Origin: a virus
UHGV virus genome: UHGV-0036853
Reading direction: 5' to 3' (one strand)
Length of the DNA: 64,000 bases
The notes beneath the pieces are model-generated. The model saw nothing but the letters and a program-made list of their open reading frames with translations, did not search any database and was not told where the DNA came from. Both the position numbers and the translations under genes were made by a program. This document shows, one piece after another, positions 5,140 to 64,000 of the stretch (the stretch's first letter is position 1; each line of letters begins with the position of its first letter).

Positions 5140-8100
5140 CTATGTCTTAATAGTTTCTGCTACGTCGGCTAATATCGCTTCTAGTCGTTCTCCCTCTTCA
5201 GGTCTGAAGTAAAGAATGTTGGGGTTAAACCCGTAAAAGACAGTAACGTCAAGGTCTGGAAGATACTCCTTCCTGCCGACTAAATCGGATGGCTTGTTTT
5301 TGTTGTTAAACATTGCCGTTGCCCGGCTGCCACACGTCAGCACATAGGTCGGACGCACCAGATTGATCTCTTCACGCATAAAGTCGGTGAACTGGCCGAT
5401 CTCGTCTTTGGTGTAGTCCTTTTCTTTGTCTTTCACCTTTTTGCAAACGCCTGTGACATAGAGATCGCCCATGCGCAAATCCCCAGCCGTCAACAGCTTG
5501 GCCTTAAAATCGTCGTATCCGTTTTCCATAAAGTAACCGGTTCGAGCATCATTGCCGTTCGCATTGTCCAGAATGATCATGATTTTCGGCTTAATACCAA
5601 TGCTGGGGCGGATTAGTTCATCACCCAAGCCCATTTCAGCCGCCATCCGTGTCATGAGCACGTTAATCTCAGCCGAACGTTTGGGGTTCATCTCAAACGG
5701 ACGTGAGGCTTTAACTGCATCTATGACAAGGTTTCCCATCAATTCAGCCTGGTCGCGGAGGCGCTCTGGATCAGTTGCTGGCAGACTACCTGGCTCGATG
5801 GATGCAAACGCCCCTACTTTTTGCAGCGATTCGCGCACTCGACTATTACAGGCACGTTTCTCGACAGCTTCTTCGAATTGCGCAAGTGATTCGAATTTGC
5901 CGCCAACCTTTTCTCGCGCTCTCATGATGGCCAGGCAGCCATTCTCAGAACACCCTTTCACAGCAGAGAAGGGCGCATACAGCACCTGGCTACCATCTTC
6001 AAGCGTGCGGATCTCGATTCGGTTAGATGACACGTTAACGTCTGGTGGCAATACGCGAATACCATAGGTCAGCGCATCTTTAACCAGCCCCTGGTGTTTA
6101 TCTTCGCCAAGAATAGTGAGAGCAGCAGCGAAAAACTCTGCGGGATAATGAGTTTTCAACCACATAGATTGATAACTGATTAAGGAGTAAGCAACAGAGT
6201 GTGATTTGTTGAACTGGTAGGCACCATTCTTTTCGAATGCGGTCCAGATCTCCTTCGCTTTCATCTCTGATAGCCCTGGATGTGACGCTGTAACGCGTAC
6301 TGCGTTTATAGGTAGTTTTGCGCCGTACTCAAGTGCCTCTTCGACAGTTTTCAGAGTTCCGTCTTCGCATTTAAAATGTTCCGCACGGTGAATGCGCTGT
6401 GTAGTGCCATCTTCCAGCTCAACGTCTATCCAGCCAGCTTGAGCCTGAACGATGAACTTCTCGCCCATGCTCTTCATTTTTTCCATGTCTTTTTTGCCGA
6501 TCGCTTTACGAACGCCGTCAGCTTCAGCCATTGTGAAGCCAGCAAGCAATCGAGTCGCGTTCATCGTCTGTTCCTGATAGAGAATCACGCCATTTGTTTC
6601 TGCGGTAAGTTCATCAAGAACGGGGTGTAATGATTCCGGCGTCATAAAGCCTTTGGCGACAGAAACATAATCATCCAACATGCCTGACTGAATTGGTCCC
6701 GGCCGGAAGAGCGCAGTCGTAGCAACGACCGTTTTAAAGCTCATTGGCTCAATTCCACCACCTAAATCTTTAAGCAGCTTGCGCATTGGGCCTGATTCAA
6801 GCTGGAAAACACCTTGAGTGTACCCAGCAGCAAAACCATCCAGCACCTTGCGATCTTCAAGAGAAATGGCATCAAGATTGATATCTTCACCTCTGTTCTC
6901 TTTTATGTAGCGTTTTGCACTATCGAGCAAATCGAGAGTTGCTAGGCCAAGCACGTCCAGCTTAATTAGGCCCATAGCCTCGCAGTAACGCTTGTCAAAT
7001 GCGATACAACGCGCGTCACCACGTCGTTCAACCGGTGTACGTTCTGTCAGAGGAACACCTGCTACGATCATCCCTGCCGCATGTCTACCAAAGCCACGCA
7101 TAAGGCTTTGTAACTTGCAGGCTGCATTGAATGCATCAGGGTATTTTGTCGCGTATTTGTCGAGACTTGCCAGTTGTTCGCGCAGCTCCTCCAATGGAAG
7201 GCTATCATCCTCGACGTTCTTCAGTTCTTTTGATACCGCCATATCTGCGGACTCCACACCATAAATACGAGCGGTGTCACGTAGTGCAGAGGCCGCGCCC
7301 AGGTAGGTGAAGTTCGGAATGCCTGCAACGTAATCTTCGCCGTAGCGTTCATTCAGATACTCGATCACCTCATGGCGACGTGCCTGGCTGAAGTCCAAGT
7401 CCGCATCTGGCAAGTCGAGACGCTCAGGGTTGATGAAACGCTCAAACAGAAGACCGTGACGGATTGGGTCGACGTTGGTTATGCCTATGCACCACGCCAC
7501 CAGAGAACCGGCAGAGGAACCACGACCAGGCCCAACGGGAATGCCAGTTTCACGACTATGATTCATCAGATCGCGCACCATCAGGAAGTAACCACAGAAT
7601 CCCAGGCGAGTAAGCGTGTCCATTTCGTACTTTAGCCGCTCAACATAAACCCTGTTCTCAGAAGCTGGTGGTGTGTAGCCAAACTCTTTTGTGGTAAGAC
7701 GTTTACGCAGCCCTGCAACAGCCAGTTTCATCAGCGTTGCAGGTTCGTCGTCTGCCATCTTGGGCAGTGCTGGTGGCAATTCATGCCAGCGCCATGTACA
7801 GGCTTCGATAATGGCGTCCTGCGTTGTTGAGGCCATTGCAGCTGTTACCGGCACATCCATGCGAACGGAGAAGGCTTTAAGCGCCTCAAGGAGATGGCGG
7901 CGACCATTGACGGCGTTATCTCGCTGGTGGGGGATACGCAGACGATGCGGCTGGTCGATTTTGATGTTGTTCGTAACCATGTGCGCAATGTCTTTAATGT
8001 CTGCATCGTCGATCGATTCGTAATAAGCGGGATAAAACGCTACTGGCTCTATTTTCAGTGCGCTGGCGACTTTCATCGCCCGGAAGTTAATCTGGTCGTA

Positions 8101-8658
8101 GAATGGGGTAGGGTGCGGATAAACCACACTATAGAAGTTGTCTTTTCCACCCGCTGTAATCAGTGTGCTTATAATTTTTGCAAAATCGTTGCGTTGGAAC
8201 ACGCTACCGATGTCGGAAGTGAGCAGGATGATGTTGCCTTTGGCATATGTAGAAACCAACTGTTCGAGCGAGAGACGCGGTACAAAGTAGAACTGTTCTC
8301 GTGTGTTGGCCACCGTCATTAGTTCGCAGATGTCGCGATATCCTTGCTCATTTTTAATTAGAGCGGTAAACGAGTAGTTACGTCCTCGCTCTAATGATTC
8401 CATACATCCCTTAGACTCTTTAGCAAGTTTAGCCCGGTACTCGTATGTGGGATCATCAACGATATTTAGTTTCACACCACAAATAACCGCCATGTCGTCA
8501 CCAGCGGCACGTTGTAGTGGAATAACACTCGCAATATTCATGCTATCTGCTGAAATTACAGCGGTGTAGCCAGCTTCTCTGGCAATCTTCACCGCGTTTT
8601 CCGCTTTTAACGCCGACTCCCCAAGTGAGAAGTCAGTTCGAACCATCAGTGCCTTCAT
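5140..8658 (-). CDS. DNA polymerase III alpha-type (DnaE-like) replicative polymerase
   Basis: 1172 aa, N-terminal PHP-like region, polymerase-core conserved blocks. Confidence 0.85.
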   Translation of the reverse strand: MKALMVRTDFSLGESALKAENAVKIAREAGYTAVISADSMNIASVIPLQRAAGDDMAVICGVKLNIVDDPTYEYRAKLAKESKGCMESLERGRNYSFTALIKNEQGYRDICELMTVANTREQFYFVPRLSLEQLVSTYAKGNIILLTSDIGSVFQRNDFAKIISTLITAGGKDNFYSVVYPHPTPFYDQINFRAMKVASALKIEPVAFYPAYYESIDDADIKDIAHMVTNNIKIDQPHRLRIPHQRDNAVNGRRHLLEALKAFSVRMDVPVTAAMASTTQDAIIEACTWRWHELPPALPKMADDEPATLMKLAVAGLRKRLTTKEFGYTPPASENRVYVERLKYEMDTLTRLGFCGYFLMVRDLMNHSRETGIPVGPGRGSSAGSLVAWCIGITNVDPIRHGLLFERFINPERLDLPDADLDFSQARRHEVIEYLNERYGEDYVAGIPNFTYLGAASALRDTARIYGVESADMAVSKELKNVEDDSLPLEELREQLASLDKYATKYPDAFNAACKLQSLMRGFGRHAAGMIVAGVPLTERTPVERRGDARCIAFDKRYCEAMGLIKLDVLGLATLDLLDSAKRYIKENRGEDINLDAISLEDRKVLDGFAAGYTQGVFQLESGPMRKLLKDLGGGIEPMSFKTVVATTALFRPGPIQSGMLDDYVSVAKGFMTPESLHPVLDELTAETNGVILYQEQTMNATRLLAGFTMAEADGVRKAIGKKDMEKMKSMGEKFIVQAQAGWIDVELEDGTTQRIHRAEHFKCEDGTLKTVEEALEYGAKLPINAVRVTASHPGLSEMKAKEIWTAFEKNGAYQFNKSHSVAYSLISYQSMWLKTHYPAEFFAAALTILGEDKHQGLVKDALTYGIRVLPPDVNVSSNRIEIRTLEDGSQVLYAPFSAVKGCSENGCLAIMRAREKVGGKFESLAQFEEAVEKRACNSRVRESLQKVGAFASIEPGSLPATDPERLRDQAELMGNLVIDAVKASRPFEMNPKRSAEINVLMTRMAAEMGLGDELIRPSIGIKPKIMIILDNANGNDARTGYFMENGYDDFKAKLLTAGDLRMGDLYVTGVCKKVKDKEKDYTKDEIGQFTDFMREEINLVRPTYVLTCGSRATAMFNNKNKPSDLVGRKEYLPDLDVTVFYGFNPNILYFRPEEGERLEAILADVAETIKT

Positions 8659-8842
8659 GTGTTTTTACCTTTCTGGTTTTTTTGATTTTGTCATTGGGGA
8701 AGCCTACGAACTTCCCATGCATCGAAATCGCAACTTCTTTTGCTGATTGGTGACAATCGGGCTTGTCTGGACACACCAGACAAGCCTTACCAGTTTCAGA
8801 AGCAGCGATAAGAGAGCCGAAACATCCTTTACGCACGATCAA
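8633..8842 (-). CDS. small Cys-rich (zinc-ribbon-like) protein
   Basis: CLVCPDKPDCH; coupled between the AAA+ gene and the polymerase gene. Confidence 0.35.
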   Translation of the reverse strand: MIVRKGCFGSLIAASETGKACLVCPDKPDCHQSAKEVAISMHGKFVGFPNDKIKKTRKVKTHEGTDGSN

Positions 8843-10074
8843 CCAAATATTTTTTGAACAACTTCACGAGCCGCTTGTGCAGAAGCTGAAGGGAGTTTGT
8901 TAATGAAAGAACGCTCAATACCTGTCACGAAGTCGCCTCGCATCATTCCAATCTTGGCCGACAACAAAAGCTCACGAGGCCCAATCGGTTGGCTGATGTT
9001 GTGTTCTTCGTAACCATCGCGAACGATACCGGCAAACTTAACCATCTTTTCAGCGTATTCATCCACGATGCCGGCATTTATCAACATGTTGATCTCTGCC
9101 TCTTTGCTCATGTATTTCACATTTGAAACGATGCCAAAACGCGAAAAGTTCGCTGCGTTCTGGATGTTTGTCCCCTGGTACAAGCCAGTTTCATCACCAG
9201 AACCGTTTGTGTTGCCAGTGCCAATGAAAGCAAACCGTTCATGCGGAGTAATGCGACGCCATTCTGGTGTTGCCTCTTTGATGACCAACGCCTCACCTTC
9301 CAGCACAGGCTGATACACGCCAAGAATTTGTGGAAACGCAAAGTCGTATTCATCCGCGAGGTAAACCCAGCCATGCTTCATTGCGAGCGCAAGCAAGCCT
9401 GGCTCGAAATACGTAGAGCCATCACGCGCCAGAATTTGACCCGTAACATGAGCCTCTTCCATTGATGCTGTATGTTGGGCACGGATCAACGGACGATTGA
9501 GCAAAGCACATAGCTGTGTAGGCAATGACGATTTGCCTGTTCCTGCATGACCCCACAAATAGCCAGGTATGCCAAGTTCAAGCATCATGAAAATATCTTT
9601 GATCAGTTCGAAGTCGCCATATACGTAGCCTTTCTTCACTTCGGGAACGAACTCTGGAAACGGCGTATTGACGTTGACGCTAACCATGAGCGGCGTCCCA
9701 CGTTTTGTTCCGAGTTCTTCCACCGTTACGTCTAGCAGTTCGTGAGCTGCGACCAGATCTGTCTTGTACTCAACTGTGCCTATGTAGCCTGGGCTACTGG
9801 TCACGCCAGAAGATTTGGCCATTTCGCTTTTTTGCTCGGCACGTTTAGCTTGAATTGCATCCAGTGCCTTTTTCGATAGCGTTGGTTCATCTGGAAACTG
9901 CGTTGTGTACATTTTCAGTACGGTGTCAGGATCGGCATCTTTTACCGACTCAGGAATGCCTTCGCAATTACCATAGGCTACATGGGACTTAAAATAGTGA
10001 AATGATTTTCCGCACCACTTGCAAACAAGGTAATCAGAAGGATTTTTTTCATTTTGCAGTGCAGTAGTAGTCAT
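8839..10074 (-). CDS. MoxR/CobS-like AAA+ ATPase with N-terminal zinc finger
   Basis: Walker A GHAGTGKSSL, Walker B VYLADEYD, CKWCGKSFHYF N-terminus. Confidence 0.75.
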   Translation of the reverse strand: MTTTALQNEKNPSDYLVCKWCGKSFHYFKSHVAYGNCEGIPESVKDADPDTVLKMYTTQFPDEPTLSKKALDAIQAKRAEQKSEMAKSSGVTSSPGYIGTVEYKTDLVAAHELLDVTVEELGTKRGTPLMVSVNVNTPFPEFVPEVKKGYVYGDFELIKDIFMMLELGIPGYLWGHAGTGKSSLPTQLCALLNRPLIRAQHTASMEEAHVTGQILARDGSTYFEPGLLALAMKHGWVYLADEYDFAFPQILGVYQPVLEGEALVIKEATPEWRRITPHERFAFIGTGNTNGSGDETGLYQGTNIQNAANFSRFGIVSNVKYMSKEAEINMLINAGIVDEYAEKMVKFAGIVRDGYEEHNISQPIGPRELLLSAKIGMMRGDFVTGIERSFINKLPSASAQAAREVVQKIFG

Positions 10075-12376: not shown

Positions 12377-12589
12377 TTAACAGATTCTGACGGCTAAAGA
12401 CCCGGAGCCGGTATTGAGAAGCGTGAAGCGTTTGTTGTTAAGTTCGAATATAAAGCCAGTTGTGTCATTCACACCAACCTGAATCTGCTCATTCGGTAGA
12501 TCGGTGAGGATGTCAGCTACACACTCATCAGCTAATTTCTGTACGTGTCCGATCTCAAGAGCGATTAGGCTGGAAATAGTGGTTTTCAT
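12377..12589 (-). CDS. hypothetical protein
   Basis: ORF only. Confidence 0.3.
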   Translation of the reverse strand: MKTTISSLIALEIGHVQKLADECVADILTDLPNEQIQVGVNDTTGFIFELNNKRFTLLNTGSGSLAVRIC

Positions 12590-12840
12590 TCAATCAATCC
12601 ATTCTAACTTATACTATGGTAAGGAATACTACTAAAATTTGTATCAATACTGAATACATCCATATCAGATGCAAGTTAATTTTCTTACCTATTTTGGGCT
12701 AGTTTTTCTCCATGCATGGACCTTTACTCGGTCTTACAAGTGCCTGCCGAAAAAAATGATAATAGCTTTACAACCCTAACCTTTGATGTAATATCGGTAA
12801 GCACTTACCAGAGAGAATTAAACGCGCAAAGGTTGTAACA

Positions 12841-13227
12841 ATGTCTGACAACAAGATTGAATTTATAGAAAGTCGCTATGCTGCTTTTATCGCAGGGCTG
12901 ATTGAATCCTCACCTATGAGTCAGGCCCAAATAGCCAGACTTATTGGTTATAAAAATGCCAACAACCTTTCTTTAATTAAAAGTGGCAAAATTCCTTTGC
13001 CTATCGATAAGGTTCGTCCGTTGGCGCTGGCGCTGGGTATTGAGCCAAGTCGTCTTATGATGATGGTGCTGGAAGAACGCCAACCTGAACTCGCAGCATT
13101 TTTATACAAAGAAGGCACCGCTCCTCTTAACGAGGACGAAAAACAGGTTCTTGCTGCATATAACGAGCGATTCGGTAAAGAGAAAGGCGCATCACAAAAG
13201 GTTGTTGAGGCCATAAAGTCTCTATGA
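12841..13227 (+). CDS. HTH (XRE-like) transcriptional regulator
   Basis: helix-turn-helix signature SQAQIARLIGYKNANNLSLIKSG; convergent with integrase. Confidence 0.55.
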   Translation: MSDNKIEFIESRYAAFIAGLIESSPMSQAQIARLIGYKNANNLSLIKSGKIPLPIDKVRPLALALGIEPSRLMMMVLEERQPELAAFLYKEGTAPLNEDEKQVLAAYNERFGKEKGASQKVVEAIKSL

Positions 13228-16799: not shown

Positions 16800-16875
16800 T
16801 GGTGCCGGTTAACGGACTTGAACCGCTGACCATTCGCTTACAAAGCGACTGCTCTACCAACTGAGCTAAACCGGC
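16800..16875 (-). tRNA. tRNA-Thr (anticodon UGU)
   Basis: acceptor GCCGGTT/AACCGGC, D-arm TAGCTCAGTTGGTAGAGCA, anticodon loop TTTGTAA, T-loop GGTTCAAGTCC, CCA. Confidence 0.75.
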
Positions 16876-16879
16876 AATT

Positions 16880-16966
16880 TGGTGGGGAGTGATGGAGTCG
16901 AACCACCCGAGTCGCAATGACAGTAGATTTACAGTCTACCCCGCTACCCCTACGGACTAACTCCCC
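16880..16966 (-). tRNA. tRNA-Tyr (anticodon GUA), long variable arm
   Basis: acceptor GGGGAGT/ACTCCCC, anticodon arm GTAGA-CTGTAAA-TCTAC, T-loop GGTTCGACTCC, CCA. Confidence 0.7.
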
Positions 16967-16971
16967 TAAAT

Positions 16972-17046
16972 TGGCGATGGTGGGTGGATTCGAACCACCG
17001 ACCAGTTGGTTAACAGCCAACTGCTCTACCGCTGAGCTACACCATC
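16972..17046 (-). tRNA. tRNA-Asn (anticodon GUU)
   Basis: acceptor GATGGTG/CACCATC, anticodon arm GTTGG-CTGTTAA-CCAAC, T-loop GGTTCGAATCC, CCA. Confidence 0.7.
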
Positions 17047-48007: not shown

Positions 48008-48066
48008 AAAACAACTTGTTTACTGCATCTGCTAACCAACTTGTTTTCTGGGGTGTTTAATTAGGT
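48008..48066 (-). promoter_or_regulatory. two motif family 2 copies upstream of terminase small subunit gene
   Basis: aaaacaacttgtttac and ccaacttgttttctgg. Confidence 0.5.
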
Positions 48067-52982: not shown

Positions 52983-53261
52983 ATGAGCGAAAAGAAAACA
53001 ACTTATTGTCAGGTGGCATTGTCTGATAAGGCCAATGACAAACTTGGAAAGTTTCAAATGAAACTAAAAGAAAAAAACATCAAAATGTCTAAGGCTGAAG
53101 TTATCAATACCATCCTAGAGGCGATGACGATGGCTGAGTTTGATAAAGTTTCCTCTGCCGTTGGAGTCTCTGCTAAGGCTCGTGAGAAAATCATGCGCAT
53201 CTATGAAAACTCTAATATGACAAAGGAAGACCTAGAACAAATTCTAAGCAAACTGCCATAA
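52983..53261 (+). CDS. small hypothetical protein coupled to helicase gene
   Basis: ORF. Confidence 0.4.
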   Translation: MSEKKTTYCQVALSDKANDKLGKFQMKLKEKNIKMSKAEVINTILEAMTMAEFDKVSSAVGVSAKAREKIMRIYENSNMTKEDLEQILSKLP

Positions 53262-54085: not shown

Positions 54086-54505
54086 ATGAAAGTAACAAAC
54101 CTAATTATTTTAACACTAGCCACATCACTAATTGGGTGTTCATCTTCATCTATATCTGTTTCAAAGGCAAAGTATGCACCTCAAAGCAGAATATTTAAAT
54201 ATCAAACACCACATGAGTCTAGTCTAACAATAGTTAGAGACAAAGGGCTGGTTGGTTCTGGATGTAACGCTTCCATATTCATCAATGGAGAAACGGCAGC
54301 AAAATTGGAACCTGGTGAAAAAGCAACTTTCTATCTTAATGAAGGAGATTGGATCGTTGGGACATCAATTGAAAGTTCAGGTCTTTGCGCATTTAACCCC
54401 TCTAGGATGGAGCGAGAAATAAAACTAAAGCAAGGCGACGCGAAAACATATCGGGTTTTCACTACCTGGGATGGTACAATGGATATATTGCCAACCACTT
54501 TATAA
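54086..54505 (+). CDS. lipoprotein (AT-rich island)
   Basis: lipobox LIGC. Confidence 0.5.
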   Translation: MKVTNLIILTLATSLIGCSSSSISVSKAKYAPQSRIFKYQTPHESSLTIVRDKGLVGSGCNASIFINGETAAKLEPGEKATFYLNEGDWIVGTSIESSGLCAFNPSRMEREIKLKQGDAKTYRVFTTWDGTMDILPTTL

Positions 54506-54509
54506 TGAT

Positions 54510-55034
54510 ATGACGACGAAAGACATCACCTACGGTGTGCCAGCAGAAGTCTGGCCTCGAGATTACACTAACGTTGAAAAACTACTGATGTTCTGGCGCA
54601 GAGAACAAATTCCTGTAAGGGCCACTCTCGAAGATGGTCAGGCGTTTTGCATGTACGTTTATGGCCTCATGCCATCTCGTAACAAAGTTGACCTTTGCCC
54701 AGCCCCTTTTGACAAAGAAAATCGTATAAGGCTCCCAATTGAACGCATTAGTACAATTGAATCAGGTGTGGTTGACAGTATCGCTCACGATTTCAAAGGT
54801 CGACTAACAGTTCACCCTGATTATGTCGATAATCGGCCATCACGCCGCGATTTTTTTGCAATTTGCAACCAAGCCTACAAAGCAAACAAATCTATAAGGG
54901 TGTACATGGCGGATGGCCGTGAAATTGAGGGGGTGTCAGCAGGCGCAGATGCTTGTCAGGTTACACTACGTGTCGAGAACGGTAGAAAAATAGTTGTTTT
55001 GTTCGATTGGGTTGAACGAATTTTGCCTTTTTGA
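54510..55034 (+). CDS. hypothetical protein (AT-rich island)
   Basis: ORF; start moved to ATG after upstream stop. Confidence 0.45.
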   Translation: MTTKDITYGVPAEVWPRDYTNVEKLLMFWRREQIPVRATLEDGQAFCMYVYGLMPSRNKVDLCPAPFDKENRIRLPIERISTIESGVVDSIAHDFKGRLTVHPDYVDNRPSRRDFFAICNQAYKANKSIRVYMADGREIEGVSAGADACQVTLRVENGRKIVVLFDWVERILPF

Positions 55035-56815: not shown

Positions 56816-57400
56816 TTTCCAATACTTCCACCATAACGCGCCATCATTGGCGCGTTTTTTATTGTCTTTGACTCACTCCAACAACATAAAAATAAGCGCC
56901 AAAATAACGCCATAGACGCGCTTTTATATCCTTGCCAGTACATACCCATTACTTAACGCATTAACGCGCTTAAAACGCGTTATATTGCGCTATAACGTAT
57001 GGCTAATCATTAATTTTTATTCTTGCTATGTGATCCGCGTTTATTTGTCGGCGCGGATCGGCATTTTGTGTTGTTCTGTGTCCGCTCGCGTATTATGTGC
57101 GCGTGATTTTTCACATAATCACACCACTTAATCACGTATGTGATTACGCTACGAAAGAAATCTGGATGTCTCAGGCGACGAAAGTCATCATGATTTTCCC
57201 CGCTCGCCTGTCCGACAACCGCTGGTTGGATTCCACCAGCTTCCCGATGTTTTTTCTACATAAAGGCGAATGCAGCCGTTTCCCGAAAAAATCCTGGCCG
57301 TTTCCCGTCGGCTCATGAATACGTTCCTCGCCGTTTCTGAAAATTTCCCTGCGGCAGCTGGTGGCTATAGAGAAAGGGCCGTTTCTGGCCCTCTTCTCAG

Positions 57401-57883
57401 TTACACGCCATCAAGGATGTGGATGCGGTTGCTTGTGTATACATTCAACATAAAGTTAGCGCAAAACAGTTTCCATGTATCAACGCCAGCGGTATACGTA
57501 ATGTTTTTGCATTTAATTGCATTGTTGGCGATCCGCATCCCCTGCGATACTGCTTCATCGTCGGAAAATTTGAACGACGATTGAGTTTTAATCCAGACAG
57601 AAATCTGCGTAGCGAACTCAATCAGCTTGGACTGGCAGAATCGCCCGGAGCGCACCGGAAAGACGAACGTTCCGAATCCAGAATTTACCACATACGCTTT
57701 CTCAAATACCCGCGAGTAACGACGATTGCCAATGATGTCGCGTGCAATAATGCATTTTTCTTGTGCTGACAGTTCTACCGTCTCATTGTCGCGCCATGCA
57801 CCAAGTACTCGTTTTTCAATGTCAGAGAACGTTACAGCGATATTGCCATGTGCGGGTGCGTTTACAGTAGCGATAAAATTCAT
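57401..57883 (-). CDS. hypothetical protein
   Basis: ORF with conserved upstream motif. Confidence 0.5.
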   Translation of the reverse strand: MNFIATVNAPAHGNIAVTFSDIEKRVLGAWRDNETVELSAQEKCIIARDIIGNRRYSRVFEKAYVVNSGFGTFVFPVRSGRFCQSKLIEFATQISVWIKTQSSFKFSDDEAVSQGMRIANNAIKCKNITYTAGVDTWKLFCANFMLNVYTSNRIHILDGV

Positions 57884-57900
57884 GATTAATTCCTTATAGT

Positions 57901-57950
57901 AAATAACAAATTGTTTTCTTGTTGGTGTTAATTATCGTTGTACGAATAAG
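57901..57950 (-). promoter_or_regulatory. motif family 2 copy
   Basis: aaataacaaattgttttcttgttggtgttaattatcg. Confidence 0.5.
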
Positions 57951-58087
57951 GCGTCAAAGTGGAAAGTTGCGGTAGCCGGACGGGAACAGGTGGGTTTGTC
58001 GGTTGCCTGGAGGTAAGAGGTTGGTGTTTTTAGCCTGCGGGAAACAGGATGGTCATTTAAGGCCACCAGCATTGGTGACCTTATTCT

Positions 58088-58369
58088 TCAGTGGAGCAGA
58101 CCGATGTCGATGGTATCCCCTGAATCATCCACACGGATCATCAGCATGGCGAAGGCGTTTAGTGGATAGCTTGCGTGCCATTCAGGGAAGCGGTCATCTC
58201 GCATGAAGTCGGCAATGTCGTAAACGATGCCCTCAAAGTGAAAGAATCTCGTGCTTACCTGCTCGTCATATTCCACATGATCCATTTCTTGCTGTTCTGT
58301 TTCCGGCAAGTCCAGCCATGATTCGAGTAATACATTTTGTGCTTTGGTGGTAATGGTGAAATCAGTCAT
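58088..58369 (-). CDS. small acidic protein
   Basis: start moved to ATG 58369 behind AGGA; the track N-terminus would overlap the upstream motif. Confidence 0.45.
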   Translation of the reverse strand: MTDFTITTKAQNVLLESWLDLPETEQQEMDHVEYDEQVSTRFFHFEGIVYDIADFMRDDRFPEWHASYPLNAFAMLMIRVDDSGDTIDIGLLH

Positions 58370-58388
58370 GAGCATATCCTCACTGCGT

Positions 58389-58440
58389 AAACATGTTGTT
58401 TTCTTGTTGGTGTAATTATCGCAGTGTAGATAAGGCATAA
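58389..58440 (-). promoter_or_regulatory. motif family 2 copy
   Basis: aaacatgttgttttcttgttggtgtaattatcg. Confidence 0.5.
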
Positions 58441-58704
58441 AAGAAGTTAATACAGGCTGAATACACAAGAAAGGTTCTCGAAGTTGATAGCCAGGTTTCA
58501 AACTAACCTTCGGTTATTAAAAGTCATTTAAGACCACCAATGCTGGTGGCCTTAATAATTATCGCCCGATTACGCTAAGGATCTTTTCCTCAACTGATTT
58601 GTTGTTGCGACTAAACTGCCTTGCGTATCTAATGACAGAAGAGGCGTTTCGCTTTCTGACCATTTCGGCTCTTTCCTTCAGGCGTTTCTTGAAATCGCCC
58701 ATAT

Positions 58705-59079
58705 TTACCACCAGGCGCAGAACGTCAGTCTGTTATTGTGAAAGTCGTGGTTCCTGATCAGGTCTTCCACAAGTTTTTTCAGCTTGTCCACGTCATGCCA
58801 GTAACCTTCATCGTACTCCTGACTGCCGAAGAAAAAACCTTCCCGGGTAGGCAAGTACTCTTCGCAATTACTTTCGTTTATGTGCATCAAATGAGCCTTC
58901 AGAAAACAAATGTCATTCATCGTTAATTCTAAAAGCTCACAATTTTCGACTTCACCTACGTTGCGCTCCATCCACCCAACGAGCGCATTGAACTTACGGA
59001 AGTAAGCAACCCGCTTTCTGGATGCCTCATTATTCAGATCGTTTTTTGGCTGCGTCTCAATGTAAATATCAAGCCCCAT
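58705..59079 (-). CDS. hypothetical protein
   Basis: start at ATG 59079 behind AAGGAA. Confidence 0.45.
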   Translation of the reverse strand: MGLDIYIETQPKNDLNNEASRKRVAYFRKFNALVGWMERNVGEVENCELLELTMNDICFLKAHLMHINESNCEEYLPTREGFFFGSQEYDEGYWHDVDKLKKLVEDLIRNHDFHNNRLTFCAWW

Positions 59080-59125
59080 GATGGTTTCCTTATTAAGTTG
59101 CTTCAGTGAAATCATTTTCACAAAT

Positions 59126-59160
59126 CAGATAAGGCAGAAAACAAATTGTTATCGGGTATA
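59126..59160. promoter_or_regulatory. motif family 2 copy, apparent opposite orientation
   Basis: agataaggcagaaaacaaattgttatcgg. Confidence 0.4.
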
Positions 59161-59164
59161 AGAA

Positions 59165-59187
59165 AATGGCGCGGTTTACGCGCCATT
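59165..59187 (-). terminator. intrinsic terminator
   Basis: ggcgcg..cgcgcc hairpin downstream of 59197 gene. Confidence 0.5.
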
Positions 59188-59196
59188 TAAAGAGGA

Positions 59197-59592
59197 TTAA
59201 GCGAATACGCTTTCAGGGATTAAGGTGTCAGCAGGAATGCCGGAGGTAATACGCAGACCGTACTGACCAATCCAGGTGGTGCTGGTGTTCAGGCTGGAGG
59301 TGAATACGGAATTAACCATATTCATCATGGTTTCAAACACCTCTTCATCAACCTGGCGGAAGTAGTTCTCGATTTTCAGCAGCAGCGGGTCAGTTGCATC
59401 GAGAATGGACTGGTATTGAGTCGCGTACTCGCCGCCGGAGGCATCACCTTTACGCACGATCGTACTGGCCTGTACTTCGGCACCAGTTTCGGTGTTGTAC
59501 GTAACAACGGTGATTTTTGCCACATTCTTACCTTCGGCGGTTTCAGAGGCATAGTAAACATCAACTGTCAGTTTTTCGCGTTTAACGGTCAT
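59197..59592 (-). CDS. hypothetical protein
   Basis: ORF. Confidence 0.45.
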   Translation of the reverse strand: MTVKREKLTVDVYYASETAEGKNVAKITVVTYNTETGAEVQASTIVRKGDASGGEYATQYQSILDATDPLLLKIENYFRQVDEEVFETMMNMVNSVFTSSLNTSTTWIGQYGLRITSGIPADTLIPESVFA

Positions 59593-59656
59593 TTCACTCT
59601 CCGTAGTGTCTTGGTTATTTTTCTATTTTATAGTCGTAGGTATGTACTTACAATAC

Positions 59657-59684
59657 AAAAAAGCCCCGTAATGATGGCGGGGCT
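59657..59684 (-). terminator. intrinsic terminator
   Basis: agccccgccatcattacggggct followed by TTTTTT on minus strand. Confidence 0.65.
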
Positions 59685-59718
59685 GTCGTACTGTCGACTA
59701 ATTACCACTTGCACATTA

Positions 59719-60030
59719 TCAGGCTATTGCCATCACTGATGCTCTCTGAATTTCTTGCTGGGCCACGCGGTTAACTTCCATCAAAGCCAGTTCGAGCTGA
59801 TGTTCCGGCCACATTCTTTGAAATGCCACCCAGCCTTTTCCACGCTGGCGACGAACATTCATTACATAACGAGTAAAGGTGTTTTTATCGAAAGACACCG
59901 CTGTTTCACGGAACAGACGAATAGAGGTTCCATTGGCAACGATGTCCAGCAAAGTTAATTGAGCAACCAGCGCAGGCTTCTCTTTTCTCTTCTGGTCTTT
60001 GTCCAGACCAAGAACCAATGATTTTTTCAT
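59719..60030 (-). CDS. small basic hypothetical protein
   Basis: start at ATG 60030 behind GGAG. Confidence 0.45.
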   Translation of the reverse strand: MKKSLVLGLDKDQKRKEKPALVAQLTLLDIVANGTSIRLFRETAVSFDKNTFTRYVMNVRRQRGKGWVAFQRMWPEHQLELALMEVNRVAQQEIQRASVMAIA

Positions 60031-60040
60031 CACAACTCCG

Positions 60041-60080
60041 TAAACAACTTGTTTTCTCAATGGCGTAAATAATACCAGTG
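60041..60080 (-). promoter_or_regulatory. motif family 2 copy
   Basis: taaacaacttgttttctcaatggcgtaaataata. Confidence 0.5.
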
Positions 60081-60184
60081 AGAAAACGGCTACAAAGCAT
60101 ATTGATCAGGTACATGAGCGATATGCAGGTTCTTCCCTGCGGCTACAGATGAAGTTAAGCCAGCATTGCTGGCTTTGGTTGGGT

Positions 60185-60514
60185 TTACTCGAATACTTCA
60201 AGAAACTCCTGAACATCCCAATGCTGGACAAGGTGAAGATAGACCTTAGAAATCACGTCATTCTCGCTATCGCATGTGAAGTAGTACTTCTGGCTGCGGT
60301 TGTATGTGTCCACACAAAATTCGCTCATATCCATAAAGTCAGCATCTTCACCCATGTCGCAAATCATCAAAGCAGGTGCATCATCACGAGTCATCAGCTC
60401 AAGCACCCACCGCGAATTGATCAGAGTGGAAGACCAACCTTCTAACTCATAAAACTGATCAAACTCTTTTTGAGTCAATTTCTTGATTTGGTTGATGTCG
60501 ATATGTGCAAACAT
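60185..60514 (-). CDS. small acidic protein
   Basis: start at ATG 60514 behind AAGGA; D/E-rich. Confidence 0.45.
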   Translation of the reverse strand: MFAHIDINQIKKLTQKEFDQFYELEGWSSTLINSRWVLELMTRDDAPALMICDMGEDADFMDMSEFCVDTYNRSQKYYFTCDSENDVISKVYLHLVQHWDVQEFLEVFE

Positions 60515-60526
60515 AAAGCAATCCTT

Positions 60527-60580
60527 AAACAACATGTTTTCTTATTGGTGTTATTATCGCAATAACACACAGGCGAAAAA
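60527..60580 (-). promoter_or_regulatory. motif family 2 copy
   Basis: aaacaacatgttttcttattggtgttattatcg. Confidence 0.5.
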
Positions 60581-60699
60581 GGATTTTATTCCGGTGAATG
60601 TGGTTTTGGCAGTGAGTTTTCAGGTTCAGTACCGAGTACAATTTTTACATTATTCTGATTTAGTGGCCGAAGATGGCTGGTGGGCAGAATAATCCTCTC

Positions 60700-62000
60700 C
60701 CCGAAAACCTACTGAAATCGATTGTGACCCGCTGGCTGTCTGGCACAATTACGCTGTAGCTGGGCATTCAGAGGGAATCCAGCGGTAAGTAAGTCCGCCT
60801 GCACGTGAGCGTCTCTCTCCTTCCCGCACATTACAGGTGGGCAGCCGCAACTCTCCCTCACGCTATACCGGTACGCCACCGTTCCTGAACCGGCATCGAA
60901 CCTTTTCCCGAAATCCACACAGGCAACTCGACCGTTTCCCTGAAAACCTCCAGCCGTTCCCCGAAGGCAACCCAGCCGTTTCTGTAGCGGGATGCAGCCT
61001 TTTCCCTGTATGGACCGAAGGCTGACCGTAGGGGTGTTACGGGGGATAAAATCAGGAGTTGAATAAATACGAAAAAGGAGGCGACACCCCTCCTTCCCTC
61101 CCCACTTATACATACCTGGCTTCTTCGCTATACATGTTGTGTTTTATTCGTGTTTTATCTGTCTCAACCTCTCTATAGGCGTTAATGCTCACTCCTTCCA
61201 GAGCGTTCTATACGGCGACTATTCCTGTTGGTGAATTGGGTGTGTTGTTCTCTCTGTCGGTGTAAATGGTTTCGTTCGTTTTGCGGTGGTTCTTCTGTGG
61301 GGGTGTTCTCGTCGTTTTGGTGATTGTTCTTCTCCGTGTATGGAGTAATGGCAGGTGGGCGATTCCTTTCGTTATTGTGTTTGAGTTGTTTGTCTGGAGT
61401 GCGTGAAGGGCTTTTGTAGTTATTCGTGTATTGGGTAATGGCGTTTCCCGTGATTGTTATGTTTCGTGTCTTTTGGGATTGAGAGAATCCTTGCGGTTAC
61501 AGGCTTCGTTGGGTTTTCAGTGATTCTGGTGTTCTTCGCTGTTTGGGGAATGGCGTGTCGTGGGTATCGCGCGTGTGAATGTTTTCGGATTGCCTGTGAA
61601 AGTTAGGTTGGTTGTCCGGTAGCCTGGGAAGAAGAGGTGGGTCTTTTCGGTGGCCTGCCATAAAGAGGTTGGTTGTTTTTGGGAATGGCATGTGTGTTAT
61701 TTAGTTGTTTTGTTATGCCTGAAAATAAGTTGTTTATATGGTTGTGTAACGCAACGGGAGCGATTTTGAGCGTGTGTTTTTGTTGGTAGTGTGTTGAGTT
61801 GTCTGTGGTGAAAATTGGACGCTGTGGAGCTGTCTGCTGCGTAGGATTACGGGTATAAGAAGTGATGTGTGAAAACGTCAATTTTTTAGACCAAATCGGG
61901 TGAAAGCGTTGACGTTTCGTTGATCTGTTATTCAGTTGTTTTCTTGTTTGTATAAACAACTATAACCTATTGATATTTAAGGATGTGATTGCAGGCATGG
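60700..62000. other. ~1.3-kb gene-poor, strongly G+T-skewed (plus strand) region with spaced short repeats
   Basis: TTCCCnGAAA-like repeats at 60.70-61.0 kb; four spaced GGGnAATGGC-like repeats at about 61336, 61427, 61540 and 61681. Confidence 0.5.
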
Positions 62001-62087
62001 AAGGGGAGTAGTGGCGATCAACGGATTCTTATAGAAAAGAATCAAATTGTGACCGCCATTATCAACGGTTTGAATATGTTTTCAGAT

Positions 62088-62396
62088 TTACCAGTTCCAG
62101 CACTCTAGCCCTTCAACGACTGGTGCACCACAATCAAAATGTACAGAGTCAAAGCCTACATCAAGTACCTTCTGAATGTTAGCAATCGCGCCTTCGGATA
62201 TACCATATCGACGCAAGTTGTCTTTCCAGACATCATCCTGTAACCCGGCGTGGACAATACAACCGCCGTCAATTTGCGAAACCCAATCCAGCTCATTGCT
62301 TGCGATCATGAACCGGCGAGCATCTTCCTCTGATGTATGAGATGAACTGATCAATGCCACCTGGTAGGCTTGGGTAATGTTCAACATTTCAACCAC
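62088..62396 (-). CDS. hypothetical protein (last gene before chromosome junction)
   Basis: ORF with two upstream motif copies. Confidence 0.45.
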   Translation of the reverse strand: MVEMLNITQAYQVALISSSHTSEEDARRFMIASNELDWVSQIDGGCIVHAGLQDDVWKDNLRRYGISEGAIANIQKVLDVGFDSVHFDCGAPVVEGLECWNW

Positions 62397-62400
62397 TCCG

Positions 62401-62470
62401 AAACAATTTGTTTTCTTATATGGCTTATTATCTCAATTAACAAAAGTCAGAAAACAAATTGTTTTAGGCA
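62401..62470 (-). promoter_or_regulatory. two motif family 2 copies
   Basis: aaacaatttgttttcttatatggcttattatc and agaaaacaaattgtttta. Confidence 0.5.
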
Positions 62471-62547: not shown

Positions 62548-64000
62548 TTACTTAACCTGGTGGCCTGGTTTAGCGCCAGCATCCGGGCTTAACAGGAAGA
62601 TATCTTTCCCGCCAGGGCCAGCAGCCATCACCATGCCTTCGGAGATACCGAAGCGCATTTTACGCGGAGCCAGGTTAGCCACCATAATGGTGTGACGACC
62701 AATCAGTGCCTGTGGGTCTGGATAAGCAGAACGGATGCCTGAGAAGACATTGCGTTTTTCACCACCGAGATCCAGTGTCAGACGCAACAGTTTGTCAGAA
62801 CCTTCAACAAACTCCGCGTTTTCAATCAGCGCCACACGCAGGTCAACTTTGGCGAAGTCGTCAAAGGTGATGGTTTCCTGAATCGGGTCGTCAGCCAGTG
62901 GGCCAGTTACCGGTGCGGCTGTGGCTTTCACTTCTTCTTTGGATGCTTCCACCAGTGCTTCCACCTGTTTCATATCGATACGGTTATACAGTGCTTTGAA
63001 CGGATTCACTTTATGGCTCAACAGCGGTTGCTGAATACCATCCCAGGTCAGTTCTGTATTCAGGAATGCTTCTGCACGTTCAGTCAGTTTCGGCAGTACC
63101 GGTTTCAGGTAAGTCATCAGCACGCGGAACAGGTTAATGCCCATAGAGCAAATCGCCTGCAGATCTGCATCGCGACCTTCCTGCTTCGCCACCACCCACG
63201 GAGCCTGTTCATCGACATAGCGGTTAGCCAGGTCAGCCAATGCCATGATTTCACGGATAGCTTTACCAAATTCGCGGCTTTCCCATGCTTCGCCAATCAC
63301 TTCAGCGGCATCAGTAAAGGTTTTGTACAGTTGCGGGTCAGCCAGTTCGCTTGCCAGCACGCCGTCAAAACGCTTGTTGATAAAGCCCGCATTACGGGAG
63401 GCCAGGTTAACCACTTTGTTCACGATATCGGCATTCACACGCTGAACGAAATCCTCCAGGTTGAGATCGATATCATCAATGCGCGAAGACAGTTTGGCGG
63501 TGTAGTAGTAACGCAGGCTGTCAGCGTCAAAATGATTCAGCCAGGTGCTGGCTTTAATAAAGGTGCCGCGAGACTTGGACATCTTCGCGCCGTTCACCGT
63601 CACATAGCCGTGAACAAACAGGTTGGTCGGCTTGCGGAAGTTGCTGCCTTCCAGCATGGCAGGCCAGAACAGGCTGTGGAAGTAAACAATATCTTTACCG
63701 ATGAAGTGGTACAGCTCGGCGGTGGAGTCTTTCTTCCAGTATTCATCGAAGCTGGTGGTATCGCCGCGCTTGTCGCACAGATTCTTGAAGGAACCCATGT
63801 AGCCAATCGGTGCGTCCAGCCAGACGTAGAAATATTTACCCGGCGCGTTCGGAATTTCAAAACCGAAGTACGGCGCATCGCGGGAGATATCCCACTGTTG
63901 CAGGCCAGATTCAAACCACTCCTGCATTTTATTTGCCACTTGCTCCTGCAACGCGCCGCTGCGGGTCCATGCCTGCAACATTTCGCTGAAAGAAGGCAGA
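62548..64000 (-). CDS. metG: methionine--tRNA ligase, C-terminal two-thirds (partial, continues past window end)
   Basis: KMSKS motif, anticodon-binding and C-terminal tRNA-binding regions read as E. coli MetRS. Confidence 0.9.

Follow-up and report, generated by a model that had tools for sequence, protein, structure and literature searches.

The 64,000-nucleotide stretch of virus genome UHGV-0036853 analysed here (hereafter the window) carries, on the minus strand between positions 57401 and 62396, an array of small genes, six of whose transcription units share a common cassette, in which an extended -10 promoter is accompanied by the 15-bp palindrome AAAACAAnTTGTTTT in single or double copy. 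Matches to sequenced relatives identify the window as an E. coli phage-plasmid of the SSU5/pHCM2 type. The region is best regarded, on a narrow balance of the evidence, as a hyperplastic accessory-gene region of this element, holding early-lytic genes that would be silent in the plasmid state and may serve host takeover or counter-defence.

The phage-plasmid and its small genes

Matches to the 5-kb span of the array occur in 245 E. coli plasmids, of which 199 cover no less than 80% of it and 204 are 95-99% identical; no chromosome matches it. The span is 97% identical to Escherichia phage Cyrano, and parts of it also match Klebsiella phage-plasmids and Salmonella phage SSU5. Records of the related elements describe a complete phage-plasmid with terminase, capsid and tail genes, its own replisome, a RepB initiator, ParB-like proteins, tRNAs and a methionyl-tRNA synthetase; the 106-kb reference E. 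coli plasmid carries CMY-2 and dfrA51. The comparisons below are among three lineages, E. coli (the window, the reference plasmid and Cyrano), Salmonella (SSU5) and Klebsiella (pJN2-26). The array extends on the minus strand from the end of the phage-plasmid metG (stop codon 62548) down to 57401, where it collides head-on with a block of plus-strand genes.

An initial annotation had described seven small minus-strand genes in this span (g1 to g7, Table 1). All seven open reading frames (ORFs) are present with ATG codons supported by ribosome binding sites (RBS), but an eighth, g2b, had been overlooked. The starts of four genes had been moved to internal ATGs; the RefSeq/PGAP (Prokaryotic Genome Annotation Pipeline) or Cyrano annotation and alignments of homologues agree with the moved starts, but five genes (g2, g3, g5, g6 and g7), not four, otherwise overrun the upstream motif. 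Orthologues of g1, g2, g4, g5 and g7 are found in both SSU5 and pJN2-26 at 36-81% amino acid (aa) identity, with g4 and g7 (the latter at 43-45%) the most diverged, and neither g3 with g2b nor g6 has a counterpart in SSU5 or pJN2-26. The homologues of g6 form only ten near-identical clusters, and all of those that are named to species come from E. coli.

All array proteins have full-length PHROG matches (E = 1e-49 to 1e-97), every one of them of "unknown function", and scans of all eight proteins against Pfam, PHROGs, NCBIfam and PADLOC gave no named family besides DUF5983 for g7 (PF19419; 42.1 bits against a cut-off of 27, E = 1.1e-10, profile positions 3-90 of 90). DUF5983 is described as a likely phage-derived family whose members adjoin CbtA/CbeA toxin-antitoxin genes in E. 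coli prophages. Sequence search of the PDB with all of the proteins but g2b, and with profiles of g2 and g4, gave no significant match. A number of individual leads were discarded. A multicystatin match of g6 (E = 1e-4, with no single stretch passing) was taken as compositional, and g4 as a CARF-like binder of cyclic oligoadenylates had sub-threshold hits only (E = 0.02-0.04 to CARF models), a profile of nine g4 homologues finding no CARF structure and giving a top hit of E = 0.48 on a His-tag region. That g2 and g6 might be paralogues was dismissed at an hhalign probability of 0.3%. The name "ABC transporter" attached to g2 in NCBI records was taken as a spurious propagated name, on a protein of 93 aa without an ABC domain, and the Kpn_R1 record (2.6 kb, covering g1-g3) is merely an unverified partial genome with no linked study.

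The shared promoter-operator cassette

The motif that had been noticed ahead of the genes is real and far above chance, with 28 matches against 4.8 expected and none of 100 shuffles reaching 28. The claim that each gene is preceded by its own copy holds for g1, g2, g3, g5, g6 and g7 (g7 twice) but not for g4, which is without the motif; the g4 orthologues in SSU5 and pJN2-26 likewise have no upstream operator. A common plan emerges when the cassettes of the window, a second E. coli plasmid, SSU5 and pJN2-26 are aligned, the operator lying downstream of the -10 in 18 copies and upstream of it in 14. The right half of the upstream operator TAAACAAnTTGTTTT extends into TTTTCTGCCTTTT at the -35 position; the extended -10 follows as TGnGATAAT, or TGGTATTAT, or TGTGAAAAT; next come 12 nucleotides (nt) of consensus AACACCAACAAG, the downstream operator AAAACAAnTTGTTTA, a further 1-8 nt, and the RBS. 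Promoters with both operators have them in inverted orientation at a centre-to-centre distance of exactly 51 bp, as is the case at g7, at two SSU5 promoters (11996/11945 and 6653/6602) and at one pJN2-26 promoter (10034/9983). In several of the copies from the reference E. coli plasmid, SSU5 and pJN2-26 a terminator hairpin lies immediately against the upstream operator.

The putative cassette promoters and their transcription starts are inferred from the conserved extended -10 and the fixed geometry. By general promoter geometry, a protein bound at about +6 to +20, or over the -35, would exclude RNA polymerase, and these would be positions of repression; the fixed five-turn (51 bp) spacing suggests cooperative binding or looping. 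The description of several genes as having their own terminator was borne out by stable hairpins after g1, g2, g3-g2b, g4 and g5 (z = -4.0 to -5.9; as stable in 0/200 shuffles), those after g1, g4 and g5 alone having a good U-tract; no terminator was found after g7. A literature search found no description of the operator, the cassette or the array.

The palindrome is not confined to the array. Allowing up to 2 mismatches, the 15-mer occurs at 15 sites in the window against 0.44 expected, and at 19 sites in the 106-kb reference plasmid as covered by four loci; nine of these sites are within the array or adjoin it. Window copies lie upstream of a CobT-like operon (12297), a DnaB-like helicase (23973) and an AAA ATPase (26003), and a tandem pair (48008 and 48033) followed by a hairpin precedes terS, the gene ahead of the large terminase; in the reference plasmid operators also stand before nrdB and further early-looking genes. 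The operator sequence is kept in all three lineages. The palindrome is the predicted operator of a regulon that extends over the whole element, with about 20 sites, and takes in replication genes, nrdB and the terminase operon. In the leader of the terminase operon (48008-48047, minus strand) the two operators are 25 bp apart, and a GC-rich hairpin (agagcgcatggacgcgctct) lies between them and the RBS; this hairpin may be an additional layer of termination or antitermination on the late operon.

Expression of the array in a lysogen

Strain LF82 carries Cyrano, and in its RNA sequencing (RNA-seq) data from overnight culture in LB (lysogeny broth) the homologues of the seven originally described genes stand at 5.7-25 normalised counts against an element median of 9.8, the same level as the structural genes (PMC9928086). 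In macrophage samples the array genes reach a log2 of about 5-7.8, with DNA helicase, primase and DNA polymerase III (Pol III) at about 4.5-5, and the SOS-type LexA-like/HumD gene of the element is up about 30-fold; ciprofloxacin induces Cyrano 39-fold (PMC9928086). These data fit repression in the plasmid state together with easy derepression. The homologue of g2b, CYRAN_109, stands at 58 counts in the LB-grown lysogen, about 10-fold over g3 and about 6-fold over background (PMC9928086). Such an excess over the overlapping upstream g3 implies that g2b has a transcript of its own or leaves a stable product of processing, or that the reads come from an antisense or small RNA.

Candidate regulators and the level of control

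In the plasmid-prophage state a dimeric DNA-binding repressor encoded by the phage-plasmid would sit on the palindromes. One candidate is a 92-aa protein (52983-53261, plus strand) encoded after a UvsW-like helicase; its Cyrano homologue is expressed about 12-fold above the lysogen background, an operator-like AAGAAAACAACTTATTG lies within its first codons, and its N-terminus is read, without confirmation, as ribbon-helix-helix, with a weak PHROG "transcriptional repressor" hit. A second candidate is a FljA-like protein, described below. A cI-like helix-turn-helix (HTH) protein (12841-13227; the Cyrano "putative repressor") is unlikely to be the operator binder, its own control region having other palindromes (GGTAAGCACTTACC). 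That region, at 12590-12840, is a divergent one between the cI-like HTH gene and a 70-aa gene (12377-12589), and has no copy of the 15-mer. In the LF82 macrophage samples the homologue of the 70-aa gene is up about 90-fold, far more than the CobT-like gene behind the next operator, and this difference suggests two regulatory tiers.

The shared motif might instead act on the mRNA, an explanation that we consider unlikely, in which a FljA-like protein would bind a 5' untranslated region (UTR) motif near the Shine-Dalgarno sequence and so block translation. The window does encode a FljA-like protein (54471-55034, plus strand; PF03614, repressor of phase-1 flagellin, E = 1.3e-83) 2.4 kb past the 3' end of the array, and its gene is conserved beside the array in SSU5 and pJN2-26. 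FljA-type proteins prevent translation of fliC mRNA (PMC2652032), the motif is 1-8 nt upstream of the RBS in five cassettes, and the Salmonella/Citrobacter fliC 5' UTR has just before the Shine-Dalgarno a ACATCAAGTTGTAAT that agrees at 10/14 specified operator positions. However, a fliC likeness with four mismatches would arise by chance in about 5-10% of cases on a rough estimate for a 130-nt AT-rich leader, and the A/U stem would make a weak RNA hairpin. Moreover, the second copy of the motif stands upstream of the -10, over the -35, and hence outside the transcript of that gene, and the inverted copies at a fixed 51 bp, or about five helical turns, suit DNA looping rather than RNA recognition. 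Because of these upstream copies and inverted 51-bp pairs, binding of the operator as DNA is favoured.

Gene turnover at the cassette

Beyond its g4 terminator SSU5 has a single dual-operator promoter, which drives g2. In the window the upstream operator of this SSU5-type promoter drives g3-g2b, and g2 retains only a -10 and the downstream operator; the g3-g2b insert is bracketed by a duplicated TTTT(C/A)TGCCTTATC, present as TTTTCTGCCTTATC at one side and as TTTTATGCCTTATC at the other. At the g6 locus, the second of the two junctions looked at, the promoter and operator are common to the window and SSU5 and are followed by unrelated genes. Close E. coli relatives differ by insertions of 0.8-1.4 kb, and Cyrano and many plasmids have an extra insert of about 760 bp. 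Read from these alignments, the lineage-specific genes (g3 with g2b, and g6) have apparently been inserted or replaced at the cassette sequence.

This arrangement recalls the PeSL (promoter-early stem-loop) cassettes of T4-type phages, which are reportedly mobile regulatory motifs that bracket small ORFs in hyperplastic regions. As with PeSL, a stem-loop and a promoter motif are repeated between small ORFs (here six promoter-operator cassettes and six hairpins), the gene content of the region varies among close relatives, and the junctions of insertion or replacement fall within the repeated motif, at both of the junctions here. The array differs in belonging to a temperate siphovirus-type phage-plasmid and not to a T4-like myovirus, and in that its repeated unit has a palindromic operator, which would give switchable repression and not plain early promoters.

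The g2 family

Close homologues of g2 occur only in elements of the SSU5 type, from E. coli, Salmonella, Klebsiella, Yersinia, Enterobacter and Cronobacter. When 1.84 billion representatives were searched with a profile, the family grew to 78 proteins, each about 90-100 aa long and aligning over its full length; the family profile has neither a Pfam family nor a PDB sequence match. An AlphaFold2 model of g2 from a 61-sequence alignment (pLDDT, predicted local distance difference test, 92) replaced an earlier one made from close homologues only (pLDDT 64.6), which was discarded, and consists of seven beta-strands and two short helices. A fold search with the model gave no match to a solved structure, and its matches in BFVD (TM-scores, template modelling scores, of 0.79-0.86) are to uncharacterised proteins only, the named one coming from an Erwinia phage. 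Every g2-family context that was opened proved to be a one-directional run of small unannotated ORFs; one such run immediately precedes a T7-like RNA polymerase, and Casjensviridae phages account for two. By this profile and context evidence g2 belongs to a hitherto unnamed family of ~95-aa proteins that recurs in unrelated lytic phages. In an unrelated, phage-like ENA metagenome contig of 62 kb, a distant homologue of g2 lies 2.4 kb from a DUF5983 protein of 262 aa within one small-ORF array (6001-9455), so that the g2 and g7 families may travel together.

Functions of the array proteins

The initial annotation proposed a cluster for host takeover or anti-defence, a proposal that the individual promoters, the common motif, the background expression in the lysogen and the contexts of the g2 family fit in so far as they indicate early timing; its DNA-mimic version has acidity as the one argument. 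In the scheme that we prefer, the small genes would be kept silent during lysogeny through the repressor on the palindromes, and would be switched on with or slightly before the lytic programme and when the element enters a new cell; their small, mostly acidic and presumably non-enzymatic products would most likely bind host proteins in host takeover or counter-defence. Because the genes are small, acidic, fast-evolving and individually switched, with family members in the early regions of lytic phages, this function is the most economical one, although we give it somewhat less than an even chance of being correct.

Several points weigh against the scheme. The cassette promoters are not called by a consensus sigma-70 scan because they are without a -35 hexamer, and no operator-binding regulator was identified among the candidates looked at. 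The g2b homologue is expressed in the lysogen, so that the array is not wholly silent, as is a Cyrano coiled-coil gene, CYRAN_102, that has no counterpart in the window, and some units rise in plain culture medium too. The only transcriptome is bulk RNA-seq of a stressed lysogen, perhaps not strand-specific and with no time course of infection or induction. Iteron-like repeats flank and interleave the array and might have a role in replication or partition. Finally, none of the array proteins resembles known anti-defence or host-takeover proteins in sequence, nor does g2 in fold.

It is rather improbable that the array consists instead of genes active in the plasmid state, for lysogenic conversion or plasmid maintenance (morons, toxin-antitoxin-like genes, or partition and copy-control genes accompanied by the iteron-like repeats). 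Such genes would account for the raised level of CYRAN_109 and the expression of CYRAN_102 in the lysogen, for the two clusters of 22-bp-spaced GGAAACGG repeats that enclose the greater part of the array and are kept in three lineages, and for the company that DUF5983 proteins keep with CbtA/CbeA genes in E. coli prophages. However, in the lysogen g1, g2, g3, g5, g6 and g7 show only the background level of the element, as do the structural genes; the operator is common to the promoters of replication and terminase genes; the RepB initiator and an annotated ParA are about 25 kb or more distant; and relatives of g2 are found in strictly lytic phages.

That the acidic g2 and g6 are DNA mimics which block type I restriction in the manner of Ocr or ArdA, or other DNA-binding defences, is in our estimate improbable. 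The two were correctly singled out as strongly acidic: their computed isoelectric points (pI) are the lowest among 72 non-overlapping ORFs of the window, with 20 aspartate and glutamate residues in the 93 aa of g2 and 22 in the 109 aa of g6, and the context is of an early-gene type. Their size (93-109 aa) and charge density would be within the range of small DNA mimics such as Ugi and AcrIIA4. The acidity test is one of composition only, g7 and g4 are likewise within the five lowest pI values of the window, and small early proteins of phages, of many functions, are commonly acidic. Neither g2 nor g6 has a match in Pfam, NCBIfam, PADLOC or PDB sequences, whether to Ocr, ArdA, ArdB/KlcA, Arn or another anti-restriction family, and the suggested comparison with known anti-restriction folds left a DNA-mimic fold unsupported, the g2 model having no match to a solved mimic fold; this lowers the idea but does not kill it, because DNA mimics have many folds.

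Lastly, it is scarcely credible that the ORFs are chance reading frames between repeated regulatory elements and not genes, for although every one is short, only g7 has a Pfam family and two adjoining ORFs annotated in Cyrano (CYRAN_103/104) do appear spurious, each has an ATG at RBS spacing and a full-length PHROG match, length and frame are kept in Salmonella and Klebsiella orthologues at the identities given above, and a diverse alignment yields a confident model for g2.

Comparison with other regulated arrays

Like the C1 regulon of P1, the array belongs to a phage-plasmid in which one short operator is repeated about 20 times at separate operons that include replication and accessory genes, and the expected logic is silence in the plasmid prophage. 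The P1 C1 operator is an asymmetric 17-mer, whereas that described here is a palindrome of symmetric 7-1-7 form, frequently in pairs at 51 bp, and unrelated to the P1 consensus. No C1 homologue is annotated in the SSU5-type records examined, and the regulon is an analogue of that of P1 and not of the same family. In the early (class I) region of the T7 group, upstream of gene 1, and in accessory early-gene arrays of other lytic phages, small ORFs similarly follow one another in one direction, often acidic and for the most part uncharacterised, but the T7 early genes form one unit transcribed from a few strong promoters, unlike the array with its own promoter and terminator per gene, and there is no homologue of Ocr or another named T7 early protein among the array proteins.

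In the leading region of the IncN plasmid pKM101/R46, ArdK-controlled anti-restriction genes each lie behind a conserved promoter-bearing repeat, the CUP repeat. The array resembles this CUP regulon in that small genes stand behind copies of one promoter repeat and would be co-repressed by a regulator that the element encodes. However, pKM101/R46 has a conjugative leading region with far longer repeats and known ard genes, whereas the array is that of a phage-plasmid without ard genes; as to other traits of a leading region, no relaxase, oriT, or ard/klcA/psiB/ssb annotation is found in or near it. Unlike the DUF5983/YeeW proteins of CP4-44-type prophages, g7 is the C-terminal domain only and is without CbtA/CbeA neighbours, and membership of DUF5983 gives it no mechanism. 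Taken as a whole, the array appears to be a repressor-controlled phage-plasmid regulon combined with PeSL-like accessory cassettes, both of kinds already known, and is not a new kind of system. A bolder version, unlikely as a whole, has the entire lytic and establishment programme run from the one 15-bp operator, the portable cassette serving as a gene-capture site and the captured genes, including the g2 family, inhibiting host defence or physiology.

The gene-free segment, repeats and neighbouring features

Within the span of the array the segment 60700-62087 is gene-free and dense in conserved repeats (Table 1), and between 61110 and 61960 the minus strand is 70% A+C, the compositional extreme of the window. 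The segment is conserved blockwise in SSU5 and Klebsiella pJN2-26. Rfam gave no match for the array and the gene-free segment, either at the gathering score or at E<=1, and elsewhere found three tRNAs only. The ORFs annotated here in Cyrano (CYRAN_103/104) are at or near the read floor or background and look spurious. The segment could be a lytic origin, a centromere, a copy-control site or a long unstructured RNA. The two GGAAACGG clusters are 3.6 kb apart; SSU5 has both and pJN2-26 the internal one, the latter having an equivalent at the same relative position in SSU5 and pJN2-26. That these repeats are iterons for RepB was rejected, there being no such cluster near repB (~25 kb off) in the reference plasmid.

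The Chi sequence (GCTGGTGG) is present in 19 copies in the whole window against 1.4 expected, and none of 100 shuffles reaches 19. Copies in or beside the array are at 57233, 57357, 58063, 58542 and 60676, two of them in stems of the hairpins on either side of g2, which are inverted relative to each other. The phage-plasmid has a full-length methionyl-tRNA synthetase of its own, encoded immediately upstream of the array (62548-64000, minus strand) and already annotated in Cyrano, whose homologue shows no induction in any LF82 condition; the phage-plasmid also encodes three tRNAs (16803-17046, minus strand).

Table 1. Genes, control elements and repeats of the array and its gene-free segment (window coordinates)
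Feature	Position	Strand	Description
g1	57401-57883	-	160 aa, pI 9.2; core gene, the best conserved; 70-81% identical in SSU5 and Klebsiella phage-plasmids
g2	58088-58369	-	93 aa, pI 4.13, net charge -15; core gene
g2b	58559-58702	-	47 aa, pI 11.3; ATG overlaps the g3 stop codon
g3	58705-59079	-	124 aa, pI 5.05; in E. coli and some Klebsiella phage-plasmids, not in SSU5 or pJN2-26
g4	59197-59592	-	131 aa, pI 4.5; core but fast-evolving, 36-54% identical in pJN2-26 and SSU5
g5	59719-60030	-	103 aa, pI 10.5; core, 63-64% identical in SSU5 and pJN2-26
g6	60185-60514	-	109 aa, pI 4.29, net charge -14; E. coli lineage only; PHROG 7645
g7	62088-62387	-	99 aa, pI 4.4; DUF5983 C-terminal domain (YeeW-like); PHROG 5003
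g1 promoter cassette (putative)	57903-57960	-	TTGACG, GATAAT, operator 57903-57917
g2 promoter cassette (putative)	58388-58445	-	TGCGATAAT and operator 58388-58402; starts with TTTTATGCCTTATC, a duplicate of a g3-promoter segment
g3 promoter cassette (putative)	59105-59152	-	operator 59138-59152 over the -35 position; extended -10 TGTGAAAAT
g4 promoter (putative)	59625-59653	-	TTGTAA-17-TAAAAT; no operator
g5 promoter cassette (putative)	60041-60095	-	TGGTATTAT and operator 60041-60055
g6 promoter cassette (putative)	60526-60585	-	TGCGATAAT, 12 nt, operator 60526-60540
g7 promoter cassette (putative)	62400-62465	-	upstream operator 62451-62465 (perfect AAAACAATTTGTTTT), extended -10 TGAGATAAT, downstream operator 62400-62414
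Terminator after g1	57366-57398	-	intrinsic; -17.7 kcal/mol, z = -4.3
Hairpin after g2	58058-58083	-	inverted copy of the 58528-58555 hairpin; Chi on minus strand
Hairpin after g3-g2b	58528-58555	-	plus-strand sequence has Chi (58542-58549)
Terminator after g4	59158-59188	-	intrinsic; -15.2 kcal/mol, z = -5.9
Terminator after g5	59655-59684	-	intrinsic; -21.2 kcal/mol, z = -5.2; followed by UUUUUUGU
Hairpin after g6	60157-60175	-	no U-tract; weaker: -12.4 kcal/mol, z = -3.2, 2/200 shuffles
GGAAACGG cluster, four copies (second)	57276-57386	-	downstream of g1
Three tandem ~30-bp repeats (ACCnACCTnTT...GGCnACCG)	57970-58059	-	upstream of g1 promoter
Five iteron-like GGAAACGG repeats	60901, 60932, 60954, 60976, 60998	-	last four at exact 22-bp spacing
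Hairpin with T-run	61072-61098	-	upstream, in the direction of transcription, of the 60901-61005 GGAAACGG repeats
Conserved hairpin/promoter-like block	within 61110-62087		AACGTCAACG...TTGACGTTTT
At least three GCCATTAC-type repeats	61317-61693		GCCATTAC...ACACGGAGAAGAAC
Two ~30-bp repeats	61613-61679		same family as the 57970-58059 repeats
Operator copy	61722-61736		in gene-free segment
Degenerate cassette	61930-61955		in gene-free segment 61110-62087

Implications

Enterobacteriaceae of clinical and livestock origin commonly harbour phage-plasmids of the SSU5/pHCM2 type, which carry resistance genes, and to our knowledge the switch between their plasmid and phage lives is essentially uncharacterised. 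The operator and its cassette provide a concrete handle on this switch, the 15-mer being suited to mutation, to use as bait for the regulator and to prediction of the regulon. The array itself is a compact conserved set of seven or eight candidate host-takeover or counter-defence proteins, among which g2 represents a family found across unrelated lytic phages, with a confidently predicted fold that matches nothing solved. If the cassette does mediate gene capture, the PeSL principle would extend from the T4-like phages to temperate phage-plasmids.

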